A stretch of DNA of 64,000 nucleotides from a virus: positions 64,001-128,000 of the IMG/VR virus record IMGVR_UViG_3300005683_000016; one strand, 5' to 3'. The translations under genes and the position numbers were made by a program. The notes under the pieces are model-generated. The model saw only the letters and a list, made by a program, of their open reading frames with translations. It made no database searches and had not been told where the DNA came from. Positions 9,942-30,062 of the stretch are shown here, in pieces (position 1 is the stretch's first letter; each line of letters starts with the position of its first letter).

Positions 9942-10114
9942 GTTATATGTTTTTGATTGCGGGGGTAAAGGTACAAAAAAATAAGAAGGGTGTATGGATT
10001 TTAACATTTTGTTATGCTTGTAAGATAGCATAAGTTTAGCCTCATCCCCCTCACCCATCCTCAATTTGATCTCCTACGCCCCCTATGGGTTATTTGGAGA
10101 TCATATTTTTTCAC

Positions 10115-10468
10115 ATGAAAATTTCCAGCAACATGGCTGCTAAAAATGAAAAGTGGAATGTCCTCACTCGTGGTGAAGTGTTCCAAAAACCAATCCTGTC
10201 AGTAAAACCTGTTGAAGTCAACGGTGTTCCCAAATACGTCATCAATGAGATGTATTGGAGCACTGTAAGGCCCGCAGAAGATGTGGCCTTTGTATGTCTT
10301 CAGCATGTCACTTTGGAACGCGGTGAAGGTGACAAGAAGGAAACACAGACTACGGTCAATGTGGTGTCCTACGCACGTCAATCCGCACAGATGTCCGTGC
10401 AGGACAAAATCAAGACCATCACAGAAAATCCCGATGTTGCAATGGCTCTTGCAACCCTTTTGAAATAG
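10115..10468 (+). CDS. Hypothetical protein, first gene of plus-strand block
   Basis: Higher GC than flanks, followed by strong terminator. Confidence 0.7.
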   Translation: MKISSNMAAKNEKWNVLTRGEVFQKPILSVKPVEVNGVPKYVINEMYWSTVRPAEDVAFVCLQHVTLERGEGDKKETQTTVNVVSYARQSAQMSVQDKIKTITENPDVAMALATLLK

Positions 10469-10491
10469 GAGGTAATCCGGGATTAGATCTC

Positions 10492-10535
10492 ACCTTCGTC
10501 CTGTCGTACAATCGTATGATGGGACGAAGGTTTTT
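10492..10535 (+). terminator. Intrinsic terminator
   Basis: ACCTTCGTCC...GGACGAAGGT stem followed by T tract. Confidence 0.8.
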
Positions 10536-10560
10536 ATTTACCTATATTATATATAGGTGT

Positions 10561-10613
10561 AACTGTCCAGAGATATGTATCTCTGCTGATGAGTCCTAAA
10601 GGACGAAACAGTT
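10561..10613 (+). ncRNA. Hammerhead ribozyme, type III
   Basis: Stem III AACTG/CAGTT, GUC cleavage triplet (C10567), stem I CAGAGATA/TATCTCTG, CTGATGA, stem II GTCC-TAAA-GGAC, GAAA. Confidence 0.92.
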
Positions 10614-10741
10614 TTATTTACTATTGGACATCATTAAGGTGCTCCGATAGTATTTAGACCAGAAGGATGGTTTATTAATAATCATTTAATGGTCTTAGTT
10701 ACTTAATTAAGTAAATAGTACAATTAATATTGGTATCAAGC

Positions 10742-11155
10742 CTATTTGTTGTAGTATTGTAATATCTTTTGAATATGAGATATAAACTCATCTATTGTGT
10801 GAGTATATTTCATCATGTTACAGGTATTACAAGAAGGTTGCACATTTTCAAGAGTATATCCTTTTTTAGAATCCACTCGATCAAGACAGTTTGCTTTATC
10901 TCCACAATAAACACAAGGAGTATTTAGCAATGTATCTATTTGATCAACTGTTAAGGAGAACTCAATTCCTTTTCTATTTGCTCGTTTAATATAACCTTCT
11001 GCTTTTCTTTCAGCAGGTGTAAGGTCTTTTAAAGGTTTATTACGAGACGAAATAGATTTAGGTTTTTTCTTTTTCTTGATTTCATGTTGTTGTAACTGCT
11101 GTTTTAATTCAGCAAGTTCTAAAGCAAGTTCGTATCCAGTTTTAATCTGTATCAT
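10742..11155 (-). CDS. HNH (His-Me finger) endonuclease
   Basis: CVYCG...LDRVDSKKGYTLENVQPSCNTCNMMK; TACCTTTG -7 element at 11161-11168 supports start at 11155. Confidence 0.8.
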   Translation of the reverse strand: MIQIKTGYELALELAELKQQLQQHEIKKKKKPKSISSRNKPLKDLTPAERKAEGYIKRANRKGIEFSLTVDQIDTLLNTPCVYCGDKANCLDRVDSKKGYTLENVQPSCNTCNMMKYTHTIDEFISHIQKILQYYNK

Positions 11156-11735
11156 AAATACAAAGGTAATGTTTAAACTGGAATTATCCAAATATAATTT
11201 GATCTCCACGCTGGAGGTTGTGTCATATTGAACCCATAAAAACATGGGTTGACCAAATTATATATTTTGAACTGTTCATTAACTCATCATACCATGACAC
11301 TCATTTTGAATCCGTCAGGTTCCCTGTCCACTGCTGGTGGATATGATTGGGACAAAAAGTAATGAGTAAAACCTTTCTAACAGTCAAGGGTGATTTGTGA
11401 GAGACTGTTATTTTAGTTTTCATTTGGTTAATATTATCTATTTGTTTGGTTAACTGTTTGTTAATTTAAACAAGTGATTTAACCAAGTGGTTAACTGTAA
11501 GTCATTGATTGTCAGGGGTAAATAAGAACACAAACCCCAACAAAATAGCAACAAATCCTCTCAAATATTCAAGAGAGGACAACTATAGAAGTAATAAGCA
11601 AATATTCGGTGCCCAATCGGTGCATCAAGAGATGGTACTCTCCAGTAAAACTCTACGCTGTTCTCAGACTCACCACCTGAAGCAATGCAGATATGGAAGA
11701 ATTAACAATTTTTTCATTTGTAAAATCAAAAAATT

Positions 11736-12068
11736 ATGATACTACTTGGGAAGAGAATTAACCAGACCAACCACCGTCTTGATACGTGGTTGAATGAAAA
11801 CCAGATCCAAAAAGCCATCAATAATGGTGGTAAAGTAGATCTTGGGCCTTGTACGATTGAAATCATCAACAACAATCTCGCTCGTGCTACTTATGAAGAC
11901 GGTGGTTACGAAGAGTATTCGTTTGTTCGTAAGATGTGGGCAGTCTACTTTAATGTAGATGGAATAATGCCCAAATTCTTTTCAACTTCAGAAAAGGCAG
12001 TAGATTTCTTTATATCGGATAAGGAAACAAGTTTTCCGCTTCTTGGTATTCAAGAAATCTGGCGATAA
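11736..12068 (+). CDS. Hypothetical protein
   Basis: ORF with A-rich leader. Confidence 0.7.
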   Translation: MILLGKRINQTNHRLDTWLNENQIQKAINNGGKVDLGPCTIEIINNNLARATYEDGGYEEYSFVRKMWAVYFNVDGIMPKFFSTSEKAVDFFISDKETSFPLLGIQEIWR

Positions 12069-12173
12069 TAGTGGTGCAAATCAGGAGTAACAGTTAAGTT
12101 ACTCCTAATTGTTCTATTTTTTAGATAGGATTAGGCTCTTAGCAGCGCTCAAACCATTAAATAAGAAAAAAAA

Positions 12174-12587
12174 ATGCTTTACCTATTCAACACTACAATC
12201 ATGCCTAATGAAGGCGTGTTTGTAAATCGCAAAGTATCCAAAGAACAAGCCTGGGAGATTATTGCAAACGCACCAGCGTTTACATCTGCGTTGGGCCATC
12301 AAGGCTCAGCAGATGTATTTAATGCTGTGTTTCCAACATTTGAAGTATCTGTAAATCGCATCCAAGCACAAATGCAACCCAAAGATGAGGCAGTATGTCT
12401 CAAAGTGTTGGGTCGTCTTCCAGAAGGACAAATCCTTTCTCTTGAACAATTGCAAGAGATTGGTTTCGAATTTTTCCATGTCCAAATGGTCATGGGAATT
12501 ACAGAAAACCCAATCGCATTTACTTGCGAGATGGGAGGGTCAAAAAACGAAAAAACATTCACCGCGTTTGGTGAGTGTAAATTTTAA
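12174..12587 (+). CDS. acrIII-1: DUF1874/YddF family viral ring nuclease (anti-type III CRISPR)
   Basis: MLYLFN, SALGHQGSA (GH motif), VNRIQ, RLPEGQILSLEQL. Confidence 0.85.
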   Translation: MLYLFNTTIMPNEGVFVNRKVSKEQAWEIIANAPAFTSALGHQGSADVFNAVFPTFEVSVNRIQAQMQPKDEAVCLKVLGRLPEGQILSLEQLQEIGFEFFHVQMVMGITENPIAFTCEMGGSKNEKTFTAFGECKF

Positions 12588-12598
12588 AAAAAACTATT

Positions 12599-12838
12599 AT
12601 GAAAAAACTTTTGCATCCAGTTACCCTTTTCCTGATCGGATATGTAATATCCGTGATTTGGATTTTTTGGGGCACTCCAGTTCCTAAATACTTTAATTGG
12701 CTTCCATTTGGAAACGCCAATGCTGGTATTTTCGTTATTGGAGGAACGGTTCTGATTGCAGCAATAGGAATATTGCTGTTGTTTACAGGATTTAAATATG
12801 TTGATTGGTACGAAAAAAAATATCAATCAAAAGATTAA
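12599..12838 (+). CDS. Small membrane protein (2 TM)
   Basis: Hydrophobic segments. Confidence 0.65.
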   Translation: MKKLLHPVTLFLIGYVISVIWIFWGTPVPKYFNWLPFGNANAGIFVIGGTVLIAAIGILLLFTGFKYVDWYEKKYQSKD

Positions 12839-12911
12839 ACAAATCTACCACGACTGTTAAATGCGCCAGAGGGCTAACAGGTGAAAAGGTAATGCGTAAT
12901 TCAAAGATTTA

Positions 12912-12919
12912 TATCTTTG
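12912..12919 (+). promoter_or_regulatory. Bacteroidota -7 element TATCTTTG
   Basis: Consensus match about 48 nt upstream of ATG 12967. Confidence 0.5.
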
Positions 12920-12966
12920 ACGCGGTAATTTGTTTATTTTAATAAATAAAAAAAAAACAAAAAATT

Positions 12967-13599
12967 ATGAAAAATAAAAAAATCCTGTCTATTGATGCCG
13001 AAACCGATGGACTTTGGGGCAATCCGTTTGTAGTTGCCGCTATCGTATATGAGTGGCAACCAGAAAAATTCATCCCAGGTATGGATCGTGGTGTAGATGG
13101 GTACAGACCTGAACACATCCTTCAAGGATATTGGAAAGAAACCAACAAAATTCTGTTAAAACTACCTGATACAGTGGTTTCTAACCAATGGGTAATCGAG
13201 AACGTATTACCTACATTGAGCAATATCCGCCAACACTCTGGCGGTGCTGGTAGTGAATATGTGAACCATACTCACGAATCTTATGAAGACATGCTGCGTG
13301 ATTTTGCAGCATTTTATCTTGCTCACAAACAAAATGCAGATTGCATCTGCCACATGGGCTACATTGTAGAGGCCCATTTGTTTCGGGAAATGCACCACCT
13401 TGGTCACATAGGAGAATGGGATGCACCATACCCGTTGCTTGATGTGTCAGGCAATCTCCAGCAAGTTGGAGAAGATCCTACAAGTGTAGATAATTATGCT
13501 AAAAAACATCGGTTACCAATCACGGATTATGGTTCAACCCATAATCCCCTGTACGACTGCGAAGTTGCCGCCAAAGTGTATATGCACTTAACACGGTAA
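12967..13599 (+). CDS. DEDDh 3'-5' exonuclease (DnaQ-like)
   Basis: ILSIDAETDG (Exo I), HNPLYD (Exo III). Confidence 0.8.
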   Translation: MKNKKILSIDAETDGLWGNPFVVAAIVYEWQPEKFIPGMDRGVDGYRPEHILQGYWKETNKILLKLPDTVVSNQWVIENVLPTLSNIRQHSGGAGSEYVNHTHESYEDMLRDFAAFYLAHKQNADCICHMGYIVEAHLFREMHHLGHIGEWDAPYPLLDVSGNLQQVGEDPTSVDNYAKKHRLPITDYGSTHNPLYDCEVAAKVYMHLTR

Positions 13600-13604
13600 A
13601 CAAT

Positions 13605-14150
13605 CAAAATCAAAAGTGAAGTGAAATATATCCATAATGTAATAGACGGTAAGCAGTCCGTTGAGCATATTTGGTTAATCGTGAATGTACTATGTACAAT
13701 GCGAGTATTAAGACCTTTAACGGGTTGCAAGGAGATAATATAATTATCAAATTGTAGGACGGCTTTTGATTTTTTTTAATAAGATTACGGTGAGAATCCG
13801 TCTCTCAGCAAAGTAGTAATACTTGAACTAATAGAGAGTGTAATAAGATGTTCAGTAGCGAAGAAATTAATTTTTCTTAGCGAGAATGGAGAAATCCTCT
13901 GAAGTTATTACAGATAACCATGTGGGGCTTATGTCTTGAAATTCTTAAAAAGTGGCGCACTTTTTATTAATAAGTTATAATTCTGTATTAGTACAGCGTA
14001 ACTTAGATTATCAAGCATTAGTGCAGACTTAAAAATCATGGAGTGGTACGACCTCAACTCGTATAATCTTTGTTGCAGATATTGATGAAAACATGAAAAG
14101 ATGTTCTGAGAGTCTTTTAAAAAGGTATCAAAAAGCAAAAGAAATTTTAT
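13605..14150 (+). ncRNA. Large structured RNA (unit 1; possibly ROOL-like)
   Basis: No credible ORF; stems 13609-17/13762-70, 13839-46/13905-12, T-loop-like ACGG-TGAGAAT-CCGT, GGA-GAAA-TCC. Confidence 0.55.
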
Positions 14151-14160
14151 TAAAAATATA

Positions 14161-14595
14161 AAACATTCACTCCGTAAAGTCTCAGTCTTTAACAGGACTC
14201 ATCACAATTCCTTTAACGTAACATAAGTTGGTGGAACAACAGGCTTAGGTCTGTCTCACAAGTATGGTGGAAGTTTGGTTGGTAAAGACAGGAGATAATG
14301 TAATCCGAAAGGATTGGCAGCAGATGGACATTGTGTTCTTAGAACATAAATAGGTCAATACAAGATGAACAGATTAAATGCTGTTATGCTTGGACGTTTC
14401 CTTATCTGCCTTTTCAAGGTAACACTTTCAAACCAGTAATGGTGAGATAATGAAGAGTATACATGTGGCAAAAGTGTTCCAGTAAGAGCATACCCACCTG
14501 ACAGGGTAATTCCAGTTTCCAAATTGTATAAGGAAACAAACGGGTTAGGATATAATTGTGCAGACGCCCTAATAGTTAGGCTAAGGGTGTAACAA
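14161..14595 (+). ncRNA. Unassigned structured RNA, copy A (~435 nt)
   Basis: Shares five core blocks and compensatory pairs with 15238-15678. Confidence 0.75.
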
Positions 14596-15231
14596 CTCCC
14601 AATCATTGGGTTAAATGGTAGTTATCAGTTACTTTAACTGATTTAGTTTACCTGTTTGTATAAATTTAACAGGAGTTCTTGTACATACAAGTGTTGTTAC
14701 TTTTTCCAGCAGTCAGAAAAAAGCGTGTAATCTACGAGATAAGATTAACCTACTGTACTTAGGTTTGAGGGTAGTTCCATGTACAACATTGAACCGAAAG
14801 GTATCATGTAAGCCCTTAAGTGGGATAAATTGAGTTAAATTGTGTTAGGTTGAAAATATACCTGTAAGAAATAATACATTTTTCGCATTTGTGAGATTTG
14901 TTAAGGTTCTTCCACAATAATATCCTACACTCAACGATGGCAGCCGGGTTGGAACCCACAGTAGATAAATAACTATACTCTTTTAGGGAGTGAAGTCAGT
15001 GTAGTTTTACTGAAAAAGTTAGTATTTATTAGACTGTTTAATAGGCGTTTTGTATATTGTAAAGTTGAATTTGTATCATAGAGAATCTGTGGGTGGATTT
15101 GCCTAATGTTAGGTGAGAGTAAGTTCGATCCTTACCGTTGATATAAATTTAACAGATATACAATCCTATACTATATAAGTCTGATCAACTTATGTAGTAA
15201 TTGTGCGACCCACATTATTGTGGGTGACATT
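14596..15231 (+). ncRNA. Unassigned large structured RNA (unit C) with embedded tRNA-like domain
   Basis: Many stems; T arm GTAAG-TTCGATC-CTTAC stacked on TCAACG/CGTTGA; shared 3' motif. Confidence 0.55.
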
Positions 15232-15237
15232 TTTTAA

Positions 15238-15678
15238 AAACATCCACTCTGTAAAGTCTTGTAATTCGCGGAAGGTTTAACCAAATATTCTCTCTTTGGG
15301 GATAAAAAAGGTGAGAATCCTTTTTCTGTGTATAGACAGGAGATGATGTAAACCAATAATATGGTTTGGCAGCAGATGGACATTGTTATTTCTTAAATGA
15401 ACTAATAAATAGGTTACTGTTCAACTTATATAAGTTGAAAGAGATTTCCTTATCTGCCTCTTCACGTTAATAGCGTTCAAGATACACTATGACCGTTGTG
15501 AAATTCAACAGGAACTACTGATTCTATACCAATCAGAGTAGTGTACATCCAGTAATGGTGAGATAATGAAGAGTATACTAAGGGTAGTCCGTAATTCAGA
15601 AATGAATTAGAGTGGGAAAATAGACTTATAAAAATCCTACCTTAGTAATTGTGCGGCATCCCAAGTGGATGCAACATT
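15238..15678 (+). ncRNA. Unassigned structured RNA, copy B (~440 nt)
   Basis: Paralogue of copy A. Confidence 0.75.
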
Positions 15679-15689
15679 TATTAACAAAA

Positions 15690-15723
15690 TTTTAACTTTT
15701 AACTTTTAACTTTTAACTTTTAA
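15690..15723. repeat. Tandem repeat (TTTTAAC) x ~4.9
   Basis: Seen directly. Confidence 0.95.
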
Positions 15724-15736
15724 AATTGTAACGGAC

Positions 15737-16114
15737 ATGCAATTTACATTAGATCACAAAGTAGGAACAAACTATGTAACTGTCACTTTAAGTGGAAAAG
15801 TATCTCCACTTATATGGTGTGAGTTTTTCACAAAACTCCAATATCTTGGAGGAAAACAAGCAGTAGAAGGACAGTCGGATATTTGGCTGTTACCTACTTT
15901 TGTTACATCACAAGTCATTGAAGAAATCATCCATAACACATGTTTCGTGTGTGGTGGATTGATGAAAGATTCTACTGCATTTTTGAATGACTGTGTATCA
16001 TTCGATGATTTTGGTAATGATGCTGGACAACGAGGTACAACACAATCACGTGTTGGAGAAGCAAAACAAGTCAAAGTTCGCAAGTGCTCTTCTTGCGGAC
16101 ACTCACACACTTAA
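15737..16114 (+). CDS. Zinc-ribbon protein
   Basis: CFVCGG...CSSCGH. Confidence 0.65.
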   Translation: MQFTLDHKVGTNYVTVTLSGKVSPLIWCEFFTKLQYLGGKQAVEGQSDIWLLPTFVTSQVIEEIIHNTCFVCGGLMKDSTAFLNDCVSFDDFGNDAGQRGTTQSRVGEAKQVKVRKCSSCGHSHT

Positions 16115-16120
16115 AAACAA

Positions 16121-16283
16121 AACAGGTGTAAGGGGGTGGAACCTTACTTTAAATGCTACCAACATTGGTTGGCCTCCAGGCATGGATGGGTCTAAAGTTC
16201 TTAAAGAACAGGGGTGAATAATGCTTAGAAGTCTGTTAAAAGACAACTTATAGTAGAATATCTCCCATGAAGGCATTACTGTT
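16121..16283 (+). ncRNA. Candidate multi-stem structured RNA
   Basis: Nested stems AACAG/CTGTT, GTAAGG/CCTTAC, AATGC/GCATT, CATGG/CCATG, GTTCT/AGAAC; GC above background. Confidence 0.4.
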
Positions 16284-16300
16284 TTTAAAACAAGCAAACT

Positions 16301-16468
16301 ATGAACAAGATATTGGGAGCATTTAATATAACACGAGAGTATGATGGACGTGAAGTAGACTATATTGGATTTTTATCTTGTACAGACGGAGAATGGGTCG
16401 GATCAGGAGAATCTACATGTATACGATATGTAGAATGGTTGATCCACACCAATCAGATTCCAAATTAA
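16301..16468 (+). CDS. Small hypothetical protein (55 aa)
   Basis: Manual translation MNKILGAFNITREYDG...; below ORF-track cutoff. Confidence 0.55.
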   Translation: MNKILGAFNITREYDGREVDYIGFLSCTDGEWVGSGESTCIRYVEWLIHTNQIPN

Positions 16469-16482
16469 AAAAACAATAAAAT

Positions 16483-16866
16483 ATGAATCAACCAATCATT
16501 TTCAACAAAAATAACCCAACAGAAAAATACATTATTACCGAAAAATGGGAGTTTAACCCCAACGGTATAACCGTCTTTGATATGGAAGTTGGAGGAATCA
16601 CAGATAACGGATTTTACCATTTTTCAGAAATCGAAAATTGGAAAAATTTAGTTAAGCAGGATTTAAAACCTAAAGTCGTAGAAGCAATTCAATCACAAAA
16701 CCTTGAAAAGGTATTATCGTTGCTTCATTTTATGTCAGATAACGGTGTATTATATCAAGGAAGATATAACGCTCTAAAGAAACAGTATACTATGGGCATG
16801 ATTGAATCCTCAGAATATACAAGAGGAATTGCTCAAATAGGTTACGACATTTTGAAAAAATTTTAA
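16483..16866 (+). CDS. Protein with C-terminal EAD11-like (effector-associated) domain
   Basis: VVEAIQSQNLEKVLSLL...LYQGRYNALKKQYTMGMIESSEY...AQIGYDIL. Confidence 0.6.
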   Translation: MNQPIIFNKNNPTEKYIITEKWEFNPNGITVFDMEVGGITDNGFYHFSEIENWKNLVKQDLKPKVVEAIQSQNLEKVLSLLHFMSDNGVLYQGRYNALKKQYTMGMIESSEYTRGIAQIGYDILKKF

Positions 16867-16944
16867 AAACCATTGTTAAACACCCACCCCAAAATTCCAA
16901 ATGATTTATTAGTTATTGAGGAGCGGGTTTATTAAAAAAATTGT

Positions 16945-17379
16945 ATGAAAATACCAGAACAATTTATCAATAAAAATCAACTTAAAAACCTTCCTATAGG
17001 TGCTATAGGCTATGCTGTTCCTTGGGTAATGTGGGTAGATATGGAAGGGAATGCTTTTCTTAATGAGAATTACGATTTACACCCTTCAAAAGGAGGTACA
17101 GTAAATCTTCAGATTACAAAAGTACCTGAAGGATATGTTGTGCATTTAGATAAATTCAGGTATTATGACAGAGAATATACTTGGACAAAACAAGAAAGTC
17201 CAGGATTTGCTTCCCCAAACGAAGTTTGCTATGGTAGAGTAGTTGCTTTTTCAGATAAAGAATATCAAGCATTGCAAAAAGATCCTGAGAGAATTAGGAA
17301 TCTTATTAACGAATGTATTCTTAACGAGAATTATGAACAAGCAAGAGAGTACCAAAACATTCTCGATCAATTGAATTAA
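16945..17379 (+). CDS. Hypothetical protein with C-terminal UVR (UvrB/C) motif
   Basis: LINECILNENYEQAREYQNILDQL. Confidence 0.6.
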   Translation: MKIPEQFINKNQLKNLPIGAIGYAVPWVMWVDMEGNAFLNENYDLHPSKGGTVNLQITKVPEGYVVHLDKFRYYDREYTWTKQESPGFASPNEVCYGRVVAFSDKEYQALQKDPERIRNLINECILNENYEQAREYQNILDQLN

Positions 17380-17386
17380 CTGGTTT

Positions 17387-17472
17387 GCTCCTGTGGCGAA
17401 ATTGGCAGCACGCTGCGGTCTTAAACACCGTTGGAGAAATCCGTAAGGGTTCAAGTCCCTTCAGGAGCACCA
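17387..17472 (+). tRNA. tRNA-Leu (TAA)
   Basis: GCTCCTG/CAGGAGC acceptor, anticodon loop CTTAAAC, long variable arm, TTCAAGT T loop, encoded CCA. Confidence 0.9.
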
Positions 17473-17606
17473 AACATTATTTTATGAACATTTACAACCG
17501 CATCAGAAAACGTACATCTTGGAAAACCAAATTAAAAGTTTGGGTCAAGATGCGTATTTTATTAATTTATAATTACTTTAAACAATGAGAACTTAGAACT
17601 TATAAA

Positions 17607-17694
17607 GGCCCCGTAACACATCATCGTTCTAAGGTGACGCTTAAAAGAGTGTAATTGGAAACAGCGTTTGGGAGTTCGAGTCTCTCCGGGGTCA
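17607..17694 (+). tRNA. Atypical tRNA-like gene with no D arm (apparent anticodon TCT, Arg)
   Basis: GGCCCCG/CGGGGTC acceptor, GGGAG-TTCGAGT-CTCTC T arm, TCATC/GGTGA stem with 7-nt loop GTTCTAA; only 7 nt where the D arm belongs. Confidence 0.6.
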
Positions 17695-17707
17695 CGCTAT
17701 TTGTTTT

Positions 17708-17739
17708 ATCCGTTTGTTGTAAAATGAACGGATTTTTTT
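17708..17739 (+). terminator. Intrinsic terminator after tRNA genes
   Basis: ATCCGTT...AACGGAT followed by T tract. Confidence 0.75.
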
Positions 17740-17760
17740 GTTTTACAAACATCAGATTAA

Positions 17761-18006
17761 ATGAACAATTCTCAATTTGCAATCCTCCTATTAATTATAG
17801 TAGGAGGGTTGTTTTTCTTTCTCACAAAGCATCGTTCAGAAGATGCTGAACTCAAAATCGCCAAGGAAGTACTTGGCTCTGACAAAAGAATGTGGAATCT
17901 ATTTAATGTTTCCTATTCTAATTATAAACGTGGCAAAATAGTAGCACTTCTTGTTGCTGCTATCTTTGCTATTATCGTTGTATATGTAATTTTACCTGCA
18001 AAATAG
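17761..18006 (+). CDS. Small membrane protein
   Basis: Two hydrophobic segments. Confidence 0.6.
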   Translation: MNNSQFAILLLIIVGGLFFFLTKHRSEDAELKIAKEVLGSDKRMWNLFNVSYSNYKRGKIVALLVAAIFAIIVVYVILPAK

Positions 18007-18016
18007 AAAATATGAA

Positions 18017-18832
18017 ATGAATAAAGTAAGTCGTCAAATCAGTTACGTTCCTGTTGTATACAGGAATAAAGAAATCAAAATCAAATTAATCCCATCAATA
18101 ACTCTATTGGTGGGATTTTTTATTTTATCTATAGGATGTGGAAAGGCATTGTTTTCTACTCATACAGTAATTAAAGAAGCAGTTCCTTATAAAGTGGTGG
18201 AACGAGATACTGTTATCAAAACAGTAACCAAAATTAAAGTAGTAGAAAAACCAGATCCTCTTAGCAAGAGAATTGTTAGGGATTTTACTAAAAGTTACAA
18301 AAGCCTCCCAATTGAGAATAAAAATACTGCTGCTAAGTATAAAGGATATACTCCTTACCAAATTATGATGTGGCACTTAAAAGCACACGAAAGTTTTAGA
18401 CCTCATCAATATCCTGATGGAGATTATCCTTCTAAAGGATTCGGTTTAAATCTTAGTCCAGAACACATTGCGTGGGCCAAATCTCAATTAGGATTTCATC
18501 CTAAAAAAAGAGACTGGACATTTGAAGAGGGTCAGAAATTGTTAATTGCGTACTGTAAAGAACATACGCTCGACCCACTTAGGAAACAATATCCTAAATT
18601 AAATCAGTTTCAAATTGTTGCTTATGCTTGTCATAAATACAACACAGGTAACACAAGAAACTTTGGATTTTGTTGTGGAGGTAAGTCTACAAAAATGAGA
18701 TGTGGAAGGAAAAGTAAAGCACATCATGCTCGTAGAGTATTTGAAGTGCAATTATTTAACGGAACATTACCTGCTTCTAAGATTGAAGCAGATCGTGTTA
18801 AAGCAATAAATCTACAACAAACATATCAATAA
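18017..18832 (+). CDS. Membrane-anchored lysozyme-like protein (GH24-like)
   Basis: TM segment; LKAHESFRPHQYPDGDYPSKGFG, YN.G, RRVFEVQLF. Confidence 0.6.
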   Translation: MNKVSRQISYVPVVYRNKEIKIKLIPSITLLVGFFILSIGCGKALFSTHTVIKEAVPYKVVERDTVIKTVTKIKVVEKPDPLSKRIVRDFTKSYKSLPIENKNTAAKYKGYTPYQIMMWHLKAHESFRPHQYPDGDYPSKGFGLNLSPEHIAWAKSQLGFHPKKRDWTFEEGQKLLIAYCKEHTLDPLRKQYPKLNQFQIVAYACHKYNTGNTRNFGFCCGGKSTKMRCGRKSKAHHARRVFEVQLFNGTLPASKIEADRVKAINLQQTYQ

Positions 18833-19376
18833 TATTATGGGAGGAATCGAAGTATTTGAATTTGAAGGAAATATGAAACTTGTTTATAAAGTGGCATTAT
18901 ATTTTCCTCAAGACATAACCGCTTTAAATGAAATGGCAACCAATTTAGAAAAAATAGCACAGTGGAACGGGTTTGTTCTGAAAAGTACTGTACAAGTAAA
19001 CTATGGTGTCAAACCTCGTAGAGATGGTTTAATTACTCTGTATATAGACGTAGAATATAAAGAAAATCATCCTTTTAGAACCACTACTTCTTTGTTAGGA
19101 TGAAAATTTTTCTTATATTAAGTGTTATTGGTATCTGTTTATGGGAATCTTATTCACCTCTCCCTGATTTTAGTAAGAAAGAGTTCGAATATTATTATCC
19201 CATTTGTTCACAATTTAAATCAAACGTACCTGTATCTATTTTGATTCTTTACAAGATTCAATCTAAAGATCAGGTACGTTTGTTTAAGAAAAAACATTTA
19301 CTTAGATCAAAATCTTTAAAGGACTGGATTCAATATATGAATCTTTCTGACGAAGAAATTGAAAAATTACTAAAAT

Positions 19377-19961
19377 ATGAGAATTACGAAAACAGTCTTC
19401 GTAGTCGTAGTTCTTCTATTAGGATATACCGTTAACTCTTATACTGTTGAGTTGGGTTCTCCTCGAATAGAAGAACCTGAAACAATCGAAGAGAAATACA
19501 AAGTGATACAAGAATGGAGTCACGGGCTAAAAGAAAAAGGATTGATTTCGATTAGTCCTGATTCTTTTGCTAAGGCTGCAATTATTGTAATGTGGTGCGA
19601 AAGTAGACTTGAAACTAAATCTCAAGATAAGTTGGGAAGTCAAGGATTAAATCAACTGCTTCCTTCTACAAGAAAGTTGATTGGTGCTCCTAATGATATT
19701 CGAAATAAATCATTTAGAGAACATCTTGAATACTTTGAGGCCTACCTTGTATTAACTGGAAAGAGCAATCAAATCGAGTGTAGTATAGATCTCCACGCAC
19801 TTAATTTTGCACCATCAAGATTTCACAAAGAAGTGTTTTGCAAGACTTCTAAAGGGTTAAAGGCCCTTGACAAGAATCAAGACGGTGTAATCAGTCGTCA
19901 AGATTTACACTTGTTTCAACAAAAGAAAATTATAAAAAATTCTTTTTTAAAATCTCTATAA
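19377..19961 (+). CDS. Lytic transglycosylase-like (SLT) protein
   Basis: MWCESRL...GSQGLNQL; C-terminal LDKNQDGVIS. Confidence 0.6.
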   Translation: MRITKTVFVVVVLLLGYTVNSYTVELGSPRIEEPETIEEKYKVIQEWSHGLKEKGLISISPDSFAKAAIIVMWCESRLETKSQDKLGSQGLNQLLPSTRKLIGAPNDIRNKSFREHLEYFEAYLVLTGKSNQIECSIDLHALNFAPSRFHKEVFCKTSKGLKALDKNQDGVISRQDLHLFQQKKIIKNSFLKSL

Positions 19962-20475
19962 CAAACCAAATGGAAAGGCCCGTAGCATATTAATAACTAC
20001 ATTAAAGGTCAGGAAAAATGACAATAGAAGAAAAAGTTCAGTTTCTTAAGTCTTATACAAATGAAGCATGGTATTATGAATACATGCTACAAAATGAAAA
20101 AGACGAGAAAAGAAAAGAGTTGATCATCAAAAAAATTAACGACACTTATGCGTATATTGTCGCACAAGATTCTAACTTACACCAACTATGAAGTACAGTT
20201 TTTTAACTAAGATACAAGTCTATCTTGTGTCTCTATTTTCAATCTTTAAATTGTTTAAAAAATGACTATCCTTACAATAATACTACTTATAGCAGGTATA
20301 ATTGGTTTGTTTGGAGGACTCCTTTCTTTCCTCGGTATATTTGATTATACCGATGATTGACCCACACTATTGTCACCTATCAAAAGCAAGGAACGATAAT
20401 GATGGTAGTAGGTTTTATTCTACTAATATTATCGTTTGGAAATATTTATCACTAATCTTGTTTAATTTAATTAAT

Positions 20476-20835
20476 ATGAAACGTATTTTTAGTATCGTCT
20501 TTTTTTTGACAGTGTGGTTTACCTGTCAGAGTCAAAATTTTAGTTTGGTTTCCCCATCATTCCAAGATGAACCTCTTGTAATGATTGATAACAACGGAGA
20601 GTTTTTGTTTGAAAAACCTTACCAAACTTCAAACAGTGAGTATCTTCCGTACACTCGAATTGTACATCAAAATAATGAGATCGAGATCAACCTTGGTGGT
20701 AGTTATGTAATGTGTATTTCATTGACAGAAGACTGTCAGTGGATTTCCAAATATGATCTCTACCAAGATTGGAATTGGATTGAAGGGTTTGTTTTCGTAA
20801 TCGCGGAAGATGTTATTATGTATGGAAAAGATTAA
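20476..20835 (+). CDS. Secreted hypothetical protein
   Basis: Signal peptide MKRIFSIVFFL. Confidence 0.6.
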   Translation: MKRIFSIVFFLTVWFTCQSQNFSLVSPSFQDEPLVMIDNNGEFLFEKPYQTSNSEYLPYTRIVHQNNEIEINLGGSYVMCISLTEDCQWISKYDLYQDWNWIEGFVFVIAEDVIMYGKD

Positions 20836-21036
20836 TGCTTTAACAGCAATGAAAGCAATAACAGCCATAGTATGTGTATTGTATACTTTGGCTTATTTCG
20901 AAGAAGGATGGACAATTCTACAGTTGGTAGAAAAAGTTCTCTCTTCTTTGTGTGTAATATGGGTGTCATATTCGCTTGGTTGGTTCCAAGCGATGTCGCA
21001 GATAAAATAAATTTTTTCATGTGAATAATTTTGTTG

Positions 21037-21068
21037 AACCTCCTTGATGAAAATCAAGGAGGTTTTTT
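21037..21068 (+). terminator. Intrinsic terminator
   Basis: AACCTCCTTGAT-GAAA-ATCAAGGAGGTT followed by T tract. Confidence 0.85.
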
Positions 21069-21101
21069 CTTTTGAACTTTTCACTTTTAAATAGTATAAA
21101 A

Positions 21102-21473
21102 ATGTTCTTTGTAGTTAAAGTAAACATGTTTAACGGTACTACCGACAATCCTGCTCGTCCTGACAAAAACGGACTTTATCCAGTGCTTTTGACCTCTTAT
21201 AACGGTACAATTCCTTCTAACACAAGAGTTATCGCAGGTACAGTTGCACATAGGGCTGGGCTGGAACCTGGTAAAAACTTTGCAATCCAATTGACTAAAA
21301 CGAGTGTTGATCCTCAATACGGAGATCGGTATCAAATTGATGTAATCGGTGAAGTAACTACACTGGAAATTGTTACCAAGATTCGTGAATTTGGTCAAGG
21401 TCAGGTTCAAGTTGCTCCCGGAGTAAAATCTGAAACACGGGTGTTGGATACCGTAACAGTTGAAGAAGACTAA
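21102..21473 (+). CDS. Phage hypothetical protein
   Basis: ORF with acidic tail; downstream hairpin 21493-21514. Confidence 0.7.
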   Translation: MFFVVKVNMFNGTTDNPARPDKNGLYPVLLTSYNGTIPSNTRVIAGTVAHRAGLEPGKNFAIQLTKTSVDPQYGDRYQIDVIGEVTTLEIVTKIREFGQGQVQVAPGVKSETRVLDTVTVEED

Positions 21474-21527
21474 TTTAATTTCTAATTTAACCGGGAGGAG
21501 GTAACACTCCTCCCAAAACTTTCTTAT

Positions 21528-22031
21528 ATGATAATGACACCTATGAGCAAAGTACTGCTCAATCTTTTGGTATCTCATCAATACTTTATTAAAAAGGGAA
21601 AAACCGAGGCTGCTAAGTTTGTAGAGTCGCAAATCCTTGCTTTCTATAATAGTAAATGCGGAGAAATTTCCAGCCAAGTATATTGGCTTGAAACTGAAGG
21701 GTATATCTTGAGAGATGGGAAGATCACTAAAAAAGGACGGCAGGTAATTGCACCTGTTGAGCAAGTGATTCAACAAGAGTCTTTTCTTGATACTCTTTAC
21801 GAACTTCCATCAAACACTTTGATTAAATTGATGTCCGATGTCCTCACAATTTCAGCAGATAGAATTCGAGAAGAAGGGATTGAGATTGTAAGTCAAGACT
21901 GCGTAGATGCCCTTAATAATATGAACGAAGTGTACAACCGTTGTATCACTCCGTTTGTACTTGACGACAGTGTTGTAGAAGACGAAGATATGTTCCATGA
22001 AGAAGTTGTCACTCAACTGCAAATGGCATAG
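21528..22031 (+). CDS. Hypothetical protein
   Basis: ORF track. Confidence 0.7.
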   Translation: MIMTPMSKVLLNLLVSHQYFIKKGKTEAAKFVESQILAFYNSKCGEISSQVYWLETEGYILRDGKITKKGRQVIAPVEQVIQQESFLDTLYELPSNTLIKLMSDVLTISADRIREEGIEIVSQDCVDALNNMNEVYNRCITPFVLDDSVVEDEDMFHEEVVTQLQMA

Positions 22032-22053
22032 GGTTATTTTGGTGAAAATTGAT

Positions 22054-22091
22054 AGGAAGGTAAGTAGCAATATTTACCTTCCTTATTTTTT
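22054..22091 (+). terminator. Intrinsic terminator
   Basis: AGGAAGGTAAGTA-GCAA-TATTTACCTTCCT followed by T tract. Confidence 0.85.
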
Positions 22092-22109
22092 AATTTCTAA
22101 AACAAAAAA

Positions 22110-22475
22110 ATGAAATATATCATTTTTCTATTATTTTTGCCTCTTACCTTAAGAAGTCAAAATACGACTTCTTATGAGTCCTACTTTCAGACTATTACTG
22201 ACAACGAATCTGTAAACATCTATCACGTTAAAATGGTAATTAAAGTGACAGATGATTACGTAGAAGTTCTTAGTGATGTAGAAAGCGAGTTTATGTCACT
22301 TGCTAAAGTTGAAGTAGAATGGCAATTAGGAACAGGATTTTTAATGTCTGCTAATAAAGAACATACTGTGTTCTATTATCCTAAAATTAATAAACTTGTA
22401 ATTATCAATTTAAACAATCAAACAGAAAGTATATTTTATGGAAATATCCCAAAGTCCGTTGAAATCTCAAAATAA
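22110..22475 (+). CDS. Secreted hypothetical protein
   Basis: Signal peptide. Confidence 0.6.
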   Translation: MKYIIFLLFLPLTLRSQNTTSYESYFQTITDNESVNIYHVKMVIKVTDDYVEVLSDVESEFMSLAKVEVEWQLGTGFLMSANKEHTVFYYPKINKLVIINLNNQTESIFYGNIPKSVEISK

Positions 22476-22619
22476 TAAATTTAGAATTTATTAAAAATTG
22501 TCATACTTTTGTTCTGCTTTTGTAATATCAGTAACACAAAATAATAATTATATAGCCACACTCAAGGTATTACCAGGCTGGTATTACAAAAGCACTTGAG
22601 ATGTGGCTTTTTATTTATT

Positions 22620-23561
22620 ATGAAGATTAAAAGTTGGACAGTAGAACAGTTAAAGTTATTAAAAAATCATTATGCGGACTCTAATATAAGTATAAAGGAG
22701 TTAAGCAAACTCATTGGTAGATCAGAACAGGCTATTATCCAAAAGGCTTGTAAATTAAAAATTCATAGATTTAGTCAAATTAAGGATAGTAGTATAGAAT
22801 TTTTAAAAAATAATTATCATAATTTACAAATACCTCATAAAATCTTTGAAGCAGAGATTGGAAGGAGTTGGCCCACCATATTACTGCTTGCAAAAAGTTT
22901 AGGATTAAAGCGGACTATTTCTTATACACCCAACTCTAATTATTTTAATAGTATTGACTGTTGGGAAAAATCTTACATAATAGGATTATTTTGGGCTGAT
23001 GCGCATAATAGTATTATAGAAAATAGAATTTCAATAGGATTACAGGAGCAAGATAAGCATATTCTCGAATCAATCAATAATATCATACAAAAAGATACAC
23101 CTTTAATGTTTAAACCTGGTAGAATAGCGAAAGGTTATAGACAAAAAAGTAAAAATCAATATGTTCTTAGAATAAGAGACAAAACAATTTCTCAGAAACT
23201 GTTAGAATATGGAATGACTTCGAATAAAACTAAAACTTTAAAATTTCCAACTTGTATCCCTGATCAATTTCTTTCTGCTTTTATCTTAGGTTATTTTGAT
23301 GGAGATGGGTGTATTTATTTAGGTAAGAAATGTAGTAATAAAGTATCTATTTGTGGGACTCTAAGTATGTTAACGGAAATAAAGAGGATATTAATTGAAA
23401 ACTGTAATGTATCTGATGTTAAAATCAGACAAGTAGGAAATATATACGACATTGCTTGGAGTAAAAAAGAAGATTTAAAAAATATTAGAAGTTTTTTATA
23501 CTCAAATGCTACTTTATATTTACAACGAAAATATAATAAATTTCATTCTATAGAAAATTAA
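22620..23561 (+). CDS. LAGLIDADG homing endonuclease (two-motif)
   Basis: SYIIGLFWADAH and FILGYFDGDGC; own TACTTTTG element at 22504-22511. Confidence 0.85.
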   Translation: MKIKSWTVEQLKLLKNHYADSNISIKELSKLIGRSEQAIIQKACKLKIHRFSQIKDSSIEFLKNNYHNLQIPHKIFEAEIGRSWPTILLLAKSLGLKRTISYTPNSNYFNSIDCWEKSYIIGLFWADAHNSIIENRISIGLQEQDKHILESINNIIQKDTPLMFKPGRIAKGYRQKSKNQYVLRIRDKTISQKLLEYGMTSNKTKTLKFPTCIPDQFLSAFILGYFDGDGCIYLGKKCSNKVSICGTLSMLTEIKRILIENCNVSDVKIRQVGNIYDIAWSKKEDLKNIRSFLYSNATLYLQRKYNKFHSIEN

Positions 23562-23565
23562 CTAT

Positions 23566-24288
23566 ATGAATAATCTAATAACAATCAACGTTATCACATA
23601 TAATGAGTCTGTAATGATTCAGTTTTTTATTGACCATTACAGAAAAATGTTTCCTGATTGCAGAATCAGAGTATACGATAATTATTCTACAGATAATACG
23701 GTAGAGATTGCTTTAGCCAATAATTGCGAAGTAATACCTTATGATTCTGGTAATGAAATTAGAGATGATATTTATATTGATATAAAAAATAATTGTCACA
23801 AGTATTGTAATACTCCTTTTGTCTTTATTGGAGATTGTGACGAAATAGTATTTATAACTCAAGAACAGTTATTAAAAGAGCAAGAAAAAGGTACAACTGT
23901 TATTTCTTTTGAGGGGTGGAATATGATAACTATGAGTGATGATCCAGACATTATTGATTTAGATTTACATTGGGCCTCTCGTGCTTCGCAGTATGACAAA
24001 ATTTACATATACAATAGAGAAGAGATTTCTCATGTAAGTTATAGTGCGGGAGCACATTTTTGTGCTTTAACTGGTAATGTAAAATATAGTGAACACTTTT
24101 ATTTAATGTGTCATTTTAAAGCCCTTGGTTTAAATTATATGATTAATCGTCACACAGAATTCGGTAAGAGACTTAGTAAACAAAATTTAGTTGCTGGACA
24201 TGGTATACACTACCTTGATAGCGAACAACAGATTAGGAACAATTGGAAGTTTTATCAAACTCATCCAGATTTAGTTAAAGTGCTATGA
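23566..24288 (+). CDS. Glycosyltransferase family 2-like
   Basis: ITYNE, YDNYSTDNT, FIGDCDE. Confidence 0.85.
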   Translation: MNNLITINVITYNESVMIQFFIDHYRKMFPDCRIRVYDNYSTDNTVEIALANNCEVIPYDSGNEIRDDIYIDIKNNCHKYCNTPFVFIGDCDEIVFITQEQLLKEQEKGTTVISFEGWNMITMSDDPDIIDLDLHWASRASQYDKIYIYNREEISHVSYSAGAHFCALTGNVKYSEHFYLMCHFKALGLNYMINRHTEFGKRLSKQNLVAGHGIHYLDSEQQIRNNWKFYQTHPDLVKVL

Positions 24289-24932
24289 TAACTTTTTGTA
24301 TTACTTCTTGCGGAAGATGGAAATTACTCGAACAAACTTTAGATTCGTTTTTAAAGTTAAATATGTTTCCTATCGAGAAATTTATCCTCAATGAAGATAG
24401 TGGAGACACAGGAATTGTAAAGAGGATTTTGGATAAATATGGGGATAAATTTCACATTATTCGAAGTCCTAAAAACCAAGGACTACTTAAATCTGCTGAC
24501 AATCTAATGTCCTTGGTAGATACACCGTATGTATTTTGGGCAGAAGATGATTGGTTATTTCAAGGAAACTCTAATTTCATTCAGGAATCTTTGCAAATCT
24601 TATCTACAAGAGAAGACATTCATCAGGTATGGATAAGATCAGGTATTCCTAAAGACTGGCTTGAAACAGAGGATTTAGGAGGGTTTAGAATGGTTAAAGA
24701 TTGTCATTTTGGAGATTGGTGCGGATTTAGTTTCAATCCCGGTCTTCGAAGACTTAGAGATTACAAAATAATGTTTCCTCAAGGATATAATGCTTTAAAC
24801 ACTCATGGAACAAACTCTGCTCTTAATGAACACGAATGTAACCAAGTAGCATCTACTTTTGGTTACAGAGCAGCAATTTTAAACAATCCTTCTTGCCAAC
24901 ACATAGGAGAAGGTAAATCAACGTACAAATGA
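24285..24932 (+). CDS. Glycosyltransferase family 2-like
   Basis: ITSCGR, NEDSG, YVFWAEDDW, HIGEG. Confidence 0.85.
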   Translation: MITFCITSCGRWKLLEQTLDSFLKLNMFPIEKFILNEDSGDTGIVKRILDKYGDKFHIIRSPKNQGLLKSADNLMSLVDTPYVFWAEDDWLFQGNSNFIQESLQILSTREDIHQVWIRSGIPKDWLETEDLGGFRMVKDCHFGDWCGFSFNPGLRRLRDYKIMFPQGYNALNTHGTNSALNEHECNQVASTFGYRAAILNNPSCQHIGEGKSTYK

Positions 24933-25459
24933 TTGATATACATAATGCCTATGTAATGAAGCATGGAAACAAAGTCTGTATTGTTACTTTTATGGATGCA
25001 GATAGATTTCCTGTTAATTTTAGTCACGGGTTTGTAGAATGTACTACTCAGACAAATATTTATTCAAATATGCTTCCATACATTACAGTTAATGTAGACA
25101 CTTTAATTGATGCAGATGAATGGGGACTTAAAACAGATGGAATGCCGTGTAAAGGAGCAGGTCTTATTGGAATTGTTACCCGTGCGTTATTTTATATGAA
25201 ACGAGTAAAAGGATTTCTTGGAGGAATTTTGTATGAAGAAAAAATTATCAATATGATTGATACAAATATCAAAGAGTTTTGTCGGGTAGTAATTCGAATA
25301 AATGAGATAAATGAATACTTAGATAAAGAAAAAGAATCTTTTTATGACGGAAGACACTCATTTGAAGAGGTTTATTCAAATTCGATTAATGAATTAAAAG
25401 ATTTACAAAAAGAGTTTCTTTTTGTATTTACAGTGCTTAAAATAAAGACAGCAAATTAA
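24929..25459 (+). CDS. Hypothetical protein
   Basis: ORF in operon. Confidence 0.65.
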   Translation: MIDIHNAYVMKHGNKVCIVTFMDADRFPVNFSHGFVECTTQTNIYSNMLPYITVNVDTLIDADEWGLKTDGMPCKGAGLIGIVTRALFYMKRVKGFLGGILYEEKIINMIDTNIKEFCRVVIRINEINEYLDKEKESFYDGRHSFEEVYSNSINELKDLQKEFLFVFTVLKIKTAN

Positions 25460-25815
25460 TGACTGAATTAAAATTTTATAGATACGACTCTGTAGAATAT
25501 GCTTCATTAGACTTTGATGGAGACGCTATAGTTCCTCCTTTTCCAAATCCTACAATAGAATTGCGTACATTTGATCTATTTAAAGAAACTTCAAAAGGAT
25601 ATTGGATTATTTCAAGTGGTTTAAAATTTTTCTCTCGATACAAGAAATGGGTATCTAAAACTGCTAAAAAAAGATATGCTTATCCTTCTAAAAAAGAAGC
25701 ATTGAACAGTTTTATTAAACGAAATCAAAGAAGATTAGAAATACTTGAAAGACAACTTGAATTGTGTAAGGCAAACTTAGCAAAAGCAGAACTCATAAAA
25801 ACGGACGATAATTAA
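25459..25815 (+). CDS. Hypothetical phage protein
   Basis: KETSKGYWI...KWVSK..KKRYAYP pattern. Confidence 0.65.
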   Translation: MTELKFYRYDSVEYASLDFDGDAIVPPFPNPTIELRTFDLFKETSKGYWIISSGLKFFSRYKKWVSKTAKKRYAYPSKKEALNSFIKRNQRRLEILERQLELCKANLAKAELIKTDDN

Positions 25816-26022
25816 TGTTTAAAGTAAAAATCTATTATGAAAAATGAGCAATAAAAAAATATTTATTATTCTATTTATAACCCTACTTGTAATAGGACTC
25901 TGGTTTGTTCCTTTACTTGGATTTAAAGTTGTTTACGGTACATGGGGATTACTGTATGTTCCTATTTTTATAATTAATATGATGTGGTTTTCATACCTAA
26001 CAGAAGTCTTAAAGCAAGTAGA

Positions 26023-26973: not shown

Positions 26974-27110
26974 AGAAATTTTAATTCTGGCTGAAAGATT
27001 AGCAACAGTGACCCAACGTGTATTATCTGCTAATATATGTAACTTAAGTTACAGATTATTTGAATTAGAACAAGCATTAAACGAATACAATAAAATAATA
27101 GAAATAAGTA

Positions 27111-27683
27111 ATGAAAGCAAAAATCAGTAAAACTGGATATTGGGAAGGAGATAAAGCCCATATTCACCATGCGCATTCTAAAGAATTGGCAGAGTACATT
27201 ACCACTATTTTACGAGGTGCAGAAAACGATCCTATTTATGATTTAGGTTGTGGACAAGGATATTATCTTAAACACCTTGAAGACAACGGGTTTAAATATC
27301 TCCTCGGATTTGAGGGAGAAGTTCCTGCTAAAAAATTCTTTATCAATATTATTCAGCAAGATCTTGCTCAAGACTTAGATATTCCTGTTAAAGGACATGT
27401 CATTTGTCTTGAAGTTCTTGAGCATATTCCTCAAGAATATGAAAAAAAAGTCGTTAACAACATTAAAGATGCAATAGGATTAGATTGTCTGTTAATTCTT
27501 TCTTGGGCTGTAGAAGGTCAAGAGGGTTATGGACACGTTAACTGTCGTAACAATGATTATGTTATTGATTTGTTTGAGCGTAAAGGATTTAAATACTTAC
27601 CCTATCTTTCTAACAAAGCACGAGAATCAGTAGGTGATGATACTCCTTGGTTTCGTAACACTCTAATGATTTTTAAAAAATGA
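27111..27683 (+). CDS. Class I SAM-dependent methyltransferase
   Basis: YDLGCGQG, CLEVLEHI, GYGHVN. Confidence 0.85.
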   Translation: MKAKISKTGYWEGDKAHIHHAHSKELAEYITTILRGAENDPIYDLGCGQGYYLKHLEDNGFKYLLGFEGEVPAKKFFINIIQQDLAQDLDIPVKGHVICLEVLEHIPQEYEKKVVNNIKDAIGLDCLLILSWAVEGQEGYGHVNCRNNDYVIDLFERKGFKYLPYLSNKARESVGDDTPWFRNTLMIFKK

Positions 27684-28267: not shown

Positions 28268-28268
28268 T

Positions 28269-29912: not shown

Positions 29913-30062
29913 TAGGTAAATATACTGATGTTGAGTTTACATCTATATGTCAAAAAGCACCTTGGTATCATATAGATTACATTAAAAAAACTGCTGTTGT
30001 TCAATATGGGAAAAACACTTTAAACTATTATAAACAAGAATCGGATTATAATTGGACTAATT

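Follow-up and report, generated by a model that had tools for sequence, protein, structure and literature searches.

Effector-associated domains (EADs) were proposed in 2020–21 as bacterial counterparts of the Death, CARD, and pyrin adaptors, acting through a homotypic "EAD principle" formulated by Kaur, Burroughs, Iyer, and Aravind (PMC7159879; PMC8195603), and they may occupy either the N- or the C-terminal position in a polypeptide (PMC8195603). In the literature that we searched, we found neither an experimental test of the EAD adaptor role nor a phage copy of EAD11. A preliminary description of a stretch of viral DNA had pointed to a small gene with an EAD11-like C-terminus, and suggested that its product could serve as a decoy. 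The questions raised by this locus are whether the gene truly encodes an EAD11 domain, what kind of phage carries it and in which host, and what an adaptor domain without an effector would do there. Throughout, "the window" refers to the whole 64,000-nucleotide stretch of DNA that was analyzed, corresponding to bases 64001–128000 of a 142-kb IMG/VR record (IMGVR_UViG_3300005683_000016) that is rated complete by CheckV.

Identification of an EAD11 domain in a small phage protein

The gene occupies window positions 16483–16866 on the plus strand, including the stop codon, as read from the ORF list and the sequence, and is translated from an ATG into a protein of 127 aa (P0001). When the protein was searched with hmmscan at a permissive threshold, a single Pfam family was returned, PF19964 (EAD11), with an E-value of 4.4e-8 and a score of 33.4 bits, which exceeds the curated cut-off of this family (26 bits). 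The match runs over residues 50–125 (16630–16857, plus strand) on profile positions 3–74 of 80 and ends 2 residues before the stop codon, which is a C-terminal position, and the EAD11 signature positions were retained in the alignment. The earlier proposal that the C-terminal ~70 aa fit EAD11 was thus upheld by the curated profile. A six-frame EAD11 search across the whole 142,038-bp phage record gave one match only (34.2 bits), and the same search brought none of 14 control genomes over the cut-off. Using phmmer, the phage protein found 20 distant matches besides itself among 1.84 billion representative proteins. Nearly all 20 carry Pfam EAD11 by hmmscan, mostly as the N-terminal domain of EAD11-TIR proteins, sometimes in EAD11-CHAT/caspase proteins, or as two to five tandem EAD11 copies. 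Both the phmmer matches and a profile built from host proteins only (55 bits; see below) agreed with the Pfam result, and at the level of sequence comparison the C-terminal domain of the phage protein was confirmed as a genuine EAD11, beyond chance resemblance.

The remaining residues, 1–49 (16483–16629, plus strand), form an N-terminal module that is beta-rich in the AlphaFold2 prediction. As this module matches no Pfam, PHROG, or PADLOC family, the description of the EAD11 copy as effector-less was borne out. With the same three resources, we recognized no effector, signaling, or core-NTPase domain fused to the phage EAD11. Two PHROG families, phrog_2921 (E = 0.035) and phrog_30519 (E = 0.068), were considered for the protein and rejected as below significance.

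Structural predictions were then compared across the two parts of the protein. The full-length AlphaFold2 model placed helices at residues 53–70, 74–84, 87–103, and 109–126 with high confidence, and a model of the EAD11 domain by itself, made from a 33-row alignment, reproduced the same four helices (pLDDT 85.3, pTM 0.70). The domain is therefore predicted to be a small four-helix bundle, all-alpha over residues 53–126, and it had no match to a catalytic family in Pfam. Foldseek searches with the phage EAD11 against the PDB and BFVD gave nothing at an E-value of 0.001 or better, and a wide VIA-align search gave generic up-down helical bundles only, the best of them the CheA HPt domain (Z = 7.8). 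Among the listed Foldseek and VIA-align matches, death-fold entries were absent, and the top ones were four-helix bundles with Z ≤7.8. For the N-terminal module, AlphaFold2 predicted strands at residues 5–7, 15–25, 28–40, and 43–46 with pLDDT of 43–57, and no signal peptide or membrane segment was visible in residues 1–49. The structural neighbors of this low-confidence model in the Atlas were small Sm/LSM-like barrels (TM 0.55–0.68), with DUF6561 also among them, and we regard the Sm/LSM-like barrel resemblance of the model as a weak lead. The sole sequence echo of the N-terminal part was between residues 33–55 and P0014, a small protein described below; a DUF551-like N-terminus of P0014 was rejected, being a by-eye likeness without Pfam support. 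Finally, when a complex of host EAD11 (A5) with phage EAD11 (A4) was predicted, the score was 0.00 on two occasions, the mark being 0.32; this prediction, which covered the one pair only, speaks neither for nor against binding.

The source genome is assigned to the crAss-like phages

We next considered the genome that carries the gene. That the gene is phage-encoded, as the preliminary description had it, was substantiated by a crAss-like large terminase and DNA polymerase, together with rIIA/rIIB, in the same genome. The large terminase yielded 117 matches, all apparently from crAss-like phages, at 24–27% identity, and the hosts named among these matches were Bacteroidota only (Bacteroides, Flavobacterium). 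The DNA polymerase was also closest to those of crAss-like phages, at 27–29% identity. The window encodes the DNA polymerase, rIIA, and rIIB along with GIY-YIG and LAGLIDADG homing endonucleases, and giant ORFs, 3464 and 3512 aa long, lie on the minus-strand arm. The genome thus shows the features by which crAss-like membership is recognized: the affinity of its terminase and polymerase, its structural and replication arms, and its giant structural-arm proteins. Judged by this gene content, it is a crAss-like phage. The sequencing runs that contained DNA of the phage were bioreactor sludge, sludge, and anaerobic-digester metagenomes, and no RNA data were listed among them.

On the plus-strand arm, the EAD11 gene is situated ~15 kb upstream of the polymerase gene, in surroundings of small ORFs, non-coding RNA, and a tRNA. 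The rIIA- and rIIB-like genes are found at 51724–55085 (plus strand), ~35 kb from the EAD11 gene. Two matches to self-cleaving ribozymes were seen in an ORF-poor stretch upstream of the EAD11 gene, one to the Hatchet ribozyme at 13894–14041 (plus strand; 67 bits against an Rfam cut-off of 51) and one to the type III hammerhead ribozyme at 10560–10614 (plus strand; 49.7 bits against an Rfam cut-off of 48.5). An ORF at 12174–12587 (plus strand) matched the Pfam STIV_B116-like family (E = 1.7e-20), which was first seen in an archaeal virus. ORFs at 25984–26973 and 28269–29912, and others in the 20–64 kb portion of the window, may act in the modification of DNA or nucleotides. Their candidate products are a nucleotide-sugar epimerase/dehydratase, glycosyltransferases, a dCMP deaminase, and a methyltransferase, as well as the N-terminal domain of a dATP/dGTP diphosphohydrolase and a spore-photoproduct-lyase-like protein; the cluster hints that the phage genome may be hypermodified. 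No NAD-rescue or other anti-TIR genes were found among 56 further ORFs of the window.

Cellular relatives are linked to effectors in Bacteroidota

To place the phage domain among cellular proteins, we scanned one genome per prokaryotic species using a pattern together with tblastn; the pattern was derived from the same subfamily, and the scan is hence biased towards it. The 38 closest cellular loci were all in MAGs of Saprospiraceae, Lewinellaceae, Saprospirales, Chitinophagales, or unclassified Bacteroidota (38 of 38). Identity of the phage EAD11 to these loci was mostly 34–47% over residues ~60–125, and reached 56% in shorter best segments. EAD11-TIR proteins of ~280 aa accounted for 32 of the 35 full ORFs scanned, and two of the 35 carried CHAT. 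Within the host-only alignment (A5), the N-terminal EAD11 of the TIR proteins had a mean column identity of 74%.

Five genomes of relatives were then examined for their EAD11 repertoire, and each held 19–23 EAD11 matches, in agreement with the earlier statement that the domain is common in filamentous Bacteroidota. The partner domains in this five-genome set were Trypsin_2 (in one case with TIR), SIR2_2, an nSTAND1 NTPase, FGE-sulfatase (FGS), TIR, caspase, and LamG. The preliminary description had linked the domain to ternary conflict systems, of the vWA-MoxR type; the NTPase partner seen fused to EAD11 in these genomes was nSTAND1. At the domain level, the partner modules resemble known defense effector modules, namely ThsB-like or SAVED-TIR, CHAT, and protease modules. 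The TIR-linked EAD11 subtype was present in exactly one copy in each of the five genomes, at 131–135 bits, with other paralogs at ≤31 bits. Across wider samples, the subtype was rare and patchily distributed: 2 of 401 genomes carried it phylum-wide, as did 14 of 201 genomes in a family sample, only two of these 14 exceeding 140 bits.

We also asked where the phage domain falls within this repertoire. On a profile built from host TIR-linked EAD11 only, the phage domain scored 55 bits (E = 1e-17), higher than on the general Pfam model, and the other EAD11 paralogs tested from the five genomes scored ≤35 bits. Repeats of tandem-EAD11 proteins spanned 18–89 bits on the TIR-linked profile, from below to above the phage domain. 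The phage domain retained 17 of the 34 host columns with ≥90% conservation (I69, E75, L78, L81, L90, R94, K99, Q101, Y102, M104, G105, I107, E111, R114, Q118, Y121, and L124), whereas at host-invariant positions Y112 replaces W, G120 replaces N, Q72 replaces G, and Y91 replaces L, among other changes. A maximum-likelihood tree of 54 EAD11 domains over 76 columns put the phage domain in a polytomy near the tandem repeats, where its placement was not settled. By these profile and column comparisons, we consider the phage domain a member of the TIR-linked/tandem-repeat EAD11 group; we do not claim descent from a TIR gene.

Bacterial proteins made of EAD11 only also exist, with two to five tandem repeats (P0002, P0003, and P0009), and the start of P0009 (186 aa) is signal-peptide-like. 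The genes for P0002 and P0003 are neighbors in a Bacteroidota genome (L050:8911–11449), with DarT-Macro and a type IIG restriction-modification gene no more than a few kb away. In one Lewinellaceae MAG (G002), the EAD11-TIR ortholog is seen as a ~131-aa frame without TIR (L022:5992–6387, the same locus as L084), representing either an adaptor-only protein that occurs naturally or a truncation. P0014 (136 aa; L010:287–918, on a 1.1-kb Logan contig) is built like the phage protein, with EAD11 preceded by a short N-terminal module. The ORF after it encodes 72 aa resembling the N-terminus of P0010, and the two may constitute a pair of small EAD11-type proteins, viral or cellular.

The EAD11 gene occupies a variable slot

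The surroundings of the gene were compared with one related phage fragment, IMGVR_UViG_3300033066_000941 (L100), which is the sole comparison for this slot. Upstream, a 125-aa ORF (15737–16114, plus strand) is conserved, with 54% identity to the frame at L100:509–757. Downstream, a 144-aa ORF (16945–17379, plus strand) is conserved with 62% identity over 143 aa (L100:6001–6435), and a tRNA-Leu(TAA) lies directly downstream of it (17387–17472, plus strand; called by ARAGORN and matching the Rfam tRNA model at 52.5 bits). Between these flanks, the slot measures 0.8 kb here and consists of the EAD11 gene and a companion ORF of 55 aa (16301–16468, plus strand), taken from the ORF list, for which there was no family match and no L100 counterpart. 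The L100 slot holds 5.2 kb of unrelated cargo, without EAD11. This cargo includes three to four tRNAs (tRNA-Met, tRNA-Leu, tRNA-Ile, and tRNA-Arg), an HNH-like ORF, and small membrane/lipoprotein-like ORFs. The interval (L100:509–6435; window 15737–17379) looks like a cargo hotspot and, as its flanks are conserved in L100 but its content differs, the EAD11 gene is variable accessory cargo. Variable slots are a typical location of host-interaction genes. Just upstream of the ORF at 15737 is a perfect (TTTTAAC)x5 tandem repeat (15687–15723), and repeats much like it occur in ~40 of 401 genomes of the searched order, often several per genome. Promoter scans, for both the sigma-70 and the Bacteroidota type, yielded no more than would be expected by chance.

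The EAD11 gene has a GC content of 31.8%, like other genes of the phage, whose genome is 33.6% GC, and this phage-like composition indicates a gene that has been maintained and was not freshly captured. The gene is a singleton in every collection searched. Its product showed no paralogy with neighboring genes, and no orthologs were found among 5.8 billion clustered proteins in a word-indexed search for proteins of near or greater length. No phage relatives of the gene were found by tblastn against INPHARED or, separately, by megablast of the region, and a profile-pattern scan found it in no other IMG/VR viral contigs. Eight IMG/VR candidates (L002–L009) were rejected as spurious; they are 1186-aa tape-measure-like proteins that have only a short YNALKKQY-type motif in common.

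A probable host among Saprospiraceae-type Bacteroidota

The preliminary description had also seen in the domain a hint of a Saprospiraceae-like host. From the crAss-like lineage of the phage, for which the named hosts are Bacteroidota, together with the sludge habitat and the taxonomy of the closest EAD11 relatives, we infer that the host is of Saprospiraceae type within the Bacteroidota. The part of the suggestion that stood was the affinity of the domain itself, with all of its closest relatives in this group; two further lines weigh against the host assignment. A search of 401 genomes of the order found no spacer-type match to window positions 10000–29999, matches being judged by sequence alone; the DNA matches obtained were mostly the simple repeat (TTTTAAC)n and short matches of 72–97%, including conserved epimerase and tRNA segments. 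The GC content of the phage is 33.6%, against 43–58% at the EAD11 loci of the relatives. As crAss-like phages can be well below the GC of their hosts, this gap weakens the host assignment but does not exclude it.

Possible functions of the phage EAD11 protein

The reading that we tentatively prefer, though at somewhat under an even chance, is that the phage protein is an adaptor-only decoy that would block a host EAD11 network. On this model, a small cytoplasmic phage protein, with a beta-rich head of ~49 residues and a four-helix EAD11 but no effector, would dock during infection by EAD11-EAD11 contact onto an EAD11-wired network of the host. Such a network would be composed of EAD11-nSTAND1 NTPase sensors and of EAD11-TIR, trypsin, SIR2, caspase, or FGS effectors. 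The effector-less phage domain would occupy docking sites or cap assemblies, and recruitment or oligomerization of effectors would thereby be prevented. The decoy reading draws on the identity of the domain, on the phage and slot context, and on the precedent of the phage protein pCARD (see below), and we count in its favor that the domain is a true EAD11, that no second domain was detected beside it, that its four-helix fold is confidently modeled, that its relatives are effector-linked, that the slot is variable, that its GC is phage-like, and that the phage lineage and the sludge habitat suit the proposed host. A bolder version, in which a single 15-kDa phage protein would jam the hub adaptor common to ~20 effectors and sensors and so disable the whole recruitment network, seems to us rather doubtful.

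Several points weigh against a decoy. Homotypic EAD docking is itself a computational prediction (PMC7159879; PMC8195603). The probable host assignment is weakened by the lack of spacer-type matches in the 401 genomes searched and by the GC gap. The phage domain is diverged in sequence, with 34–47% identity set against a host family mean of 74%. Effector-less EAD11 proteins are found in bacteria, one with a signal-peptide-like start, which implies that EAD11 is not always an intracellular effector tag. Because the gene is a singleton, selection on it is not measurable, and the real function may be carried by the N-terminal 49 residues.

This last point leads to an explanation in which the EAD11-type module is a self-association domain or scaffold for an N-terminal beta activity, unrelated to host conflict, so that its similarity to host domains reflects shared ancestry only. 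Bacterial effector-less EAD11-only or tandem proteins (P0002, P0003, P0004, P0007, and P0009) would fit such a role, as would the signal-peptide-like start of P0009, the generic nature of the up-down four-helix fold (with CheA HPt as the best VIA match), the divergence of the phage domain at host-invariant positions, and the short YNALKKQY-type helix-turn motif shared with tape-measure proteins. The match, however, covers the whole domain and lies above the curated cut-off, and the nearest relatives are both taxonomically narrow and effector-linked. Further, the pattern scan found no other IMG/VR contig with the domain, which disfavors a common phage building block. We judge a scaffold unlikely, but well worth keeping in mind. 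The distinct N-terminal part could instead be the target-binding half of a hijacking or bridging adaptor, whose EAD11 would recruit a host protease, TIR, or SIR2 protein to that target, or would trigger suicide upon superinfection by a competing phage. The two-module architecture is compatible with this, P0014 is a distant small relative of the same layout, and the EAD11 partners in hosts are diverse enzymes that might be redirected. Yet the N-terminal module is short, its model is of low confidence, it has no detectable relatives, and it shows no sign of a ligand; activated TIR, SIR2, or protease effectors of the host would, moreover, normally harm a lytic phage. A bridging role is improbable in our estimation.

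It is also conceivable that the gene does nothing: it could be a remnant, decaying or neutral, of an EAD11-TIR gene that was captured from a host and lost its TIR part, functionless now or unexpressed. Its status as a singleton without orthologs and the turnover of the slot between related phages are in keeping with a remnant, and the TIR-less ~131-aa frame of the same subtype in one Lewinellaceae genome (L022/L084) indicates that truncation happens. Against this, the frame is intact, residues of the hydrophobic core and the signature persist, in 17 of 34 conserved columns, and the model is confident. The GC content is fully ameliorated to that of the phage, which speaks for long residence under at least weak selection. 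In addition, EAD11 here is C-terminal, behind a new N-terminal module, but is N-terminal in EAD11-TIR, so that the gene is not a simple 5′ fragment. We give a remnant the smallest probability of the explanations considered, and an adaptor-only decoy remains the one with which we continue.

Comparison with known systems

The phage domain resembles the EAD11 family in its near-full profile match, in being a small all-helical non-enzymatic domain, and in its terminal position. It differs from the family in being phage-encoded, present as a single copy in its genome, unfused, and diverged at host-invariant positions. Compared with the EAD-coupled systems of Kaur et al., the phage record has one unfused copy, whereas the genomes of relatives have 19–23 copies, including EAD11-nSTAND1, matching the described architecture. 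Bacterial tandem or EAD11-only proteins (P0002, P0003, P0004, P0009, P0018, and the L022 frame) share with the phage protein their effector-less state and broad subtype, but are cellular, often have multiple repeats, and in one case look secreted.

The closest functional precedent is pCARD, a 141-aa CARD-only protein of Acinetobacter phage 133, which lowers gasdermin cleavage and gives phage partial protection against CARD-dependent defense; RIIB is a trigger of CARD-dependent systems, and the pCARD gene adjoins rIIAB (bioRxiv 10.1101/2023.05.28.542683). Wein et al. liken pCARD to the pyrin-only proteins of poxviruses (bioRxiv 10.1101/2023.05.28.542683). Like pCARD, the protein described here is small (127 aa against 141 aa), carries a predicted host immune adaptor domain without an effector, and belongs to a large lytic-type phage with rIIA/rIIB. 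The two differ in fold, CARD being a death fold and EAD11 a predicted four-helix bundle, and in position, as rIIAB is adjacent in the one case and ~35 kb away in the other. Inhibition has been demonstrated for pCARD, whereas for the phage EAD11 it is a proposal.

Herpesviruses and poxviruses encode vFLIPs, which are DED-only adaptor decoys. Poxvirus pyrin-only proteins and vFLIPs are comparable in that a virus copy of a homotypic domain, without an enzyme, poisons an assembly; these pyrin-only and DED-only decoys are eukaryotic death folds, however, and are unrelated to EAD11 in sequence and, as far as can be detected, in structure. A further parallel is AcrIB4, which is proposed to replace Cas11 through subunit mimicry (bioRxiv 10.1101/2025.06.06.658234). 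Here, too, a phage homologue of a host defense component is proposed to take the place of that component, but the target is CRISPR Cascade and not a STAND/EAD effector-recruitment network.

That a virus encodes EAD11 without an effector speaks, on independent evolutionary grounds, for the domain as a site of conflict between host and virus. Should the phage EAD11 prove to bind host EAD11-TIR or EAD11-nSTAND1 and block their activity, this would reveal both a role of EAD11 and a phage counter-strategy. If no host EAD11 is bound, the finding would come down to a further case of a domain spread by horizontal transfer. Jamming of the hub, should it prove true, would give EAD-wired STAND systems their first inhibitor and open the so far purely computational "EAD principle" to experiment for the first time. 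The adaptor-only decoy strategy would then reach beyond death folds, to a predicted four-helix bundle, and would include crAss-like phages from the environment whose hosts are filamentous Bacteroidota. Adaptor-only inhibitors of viral origin are already known in pCARD and in the pyrin-only and DED-only proteins; EAD11 is predicted to have a different fold, and the networks concerned are those of nSTAND1, TIR, SIR2, and protease proteins.
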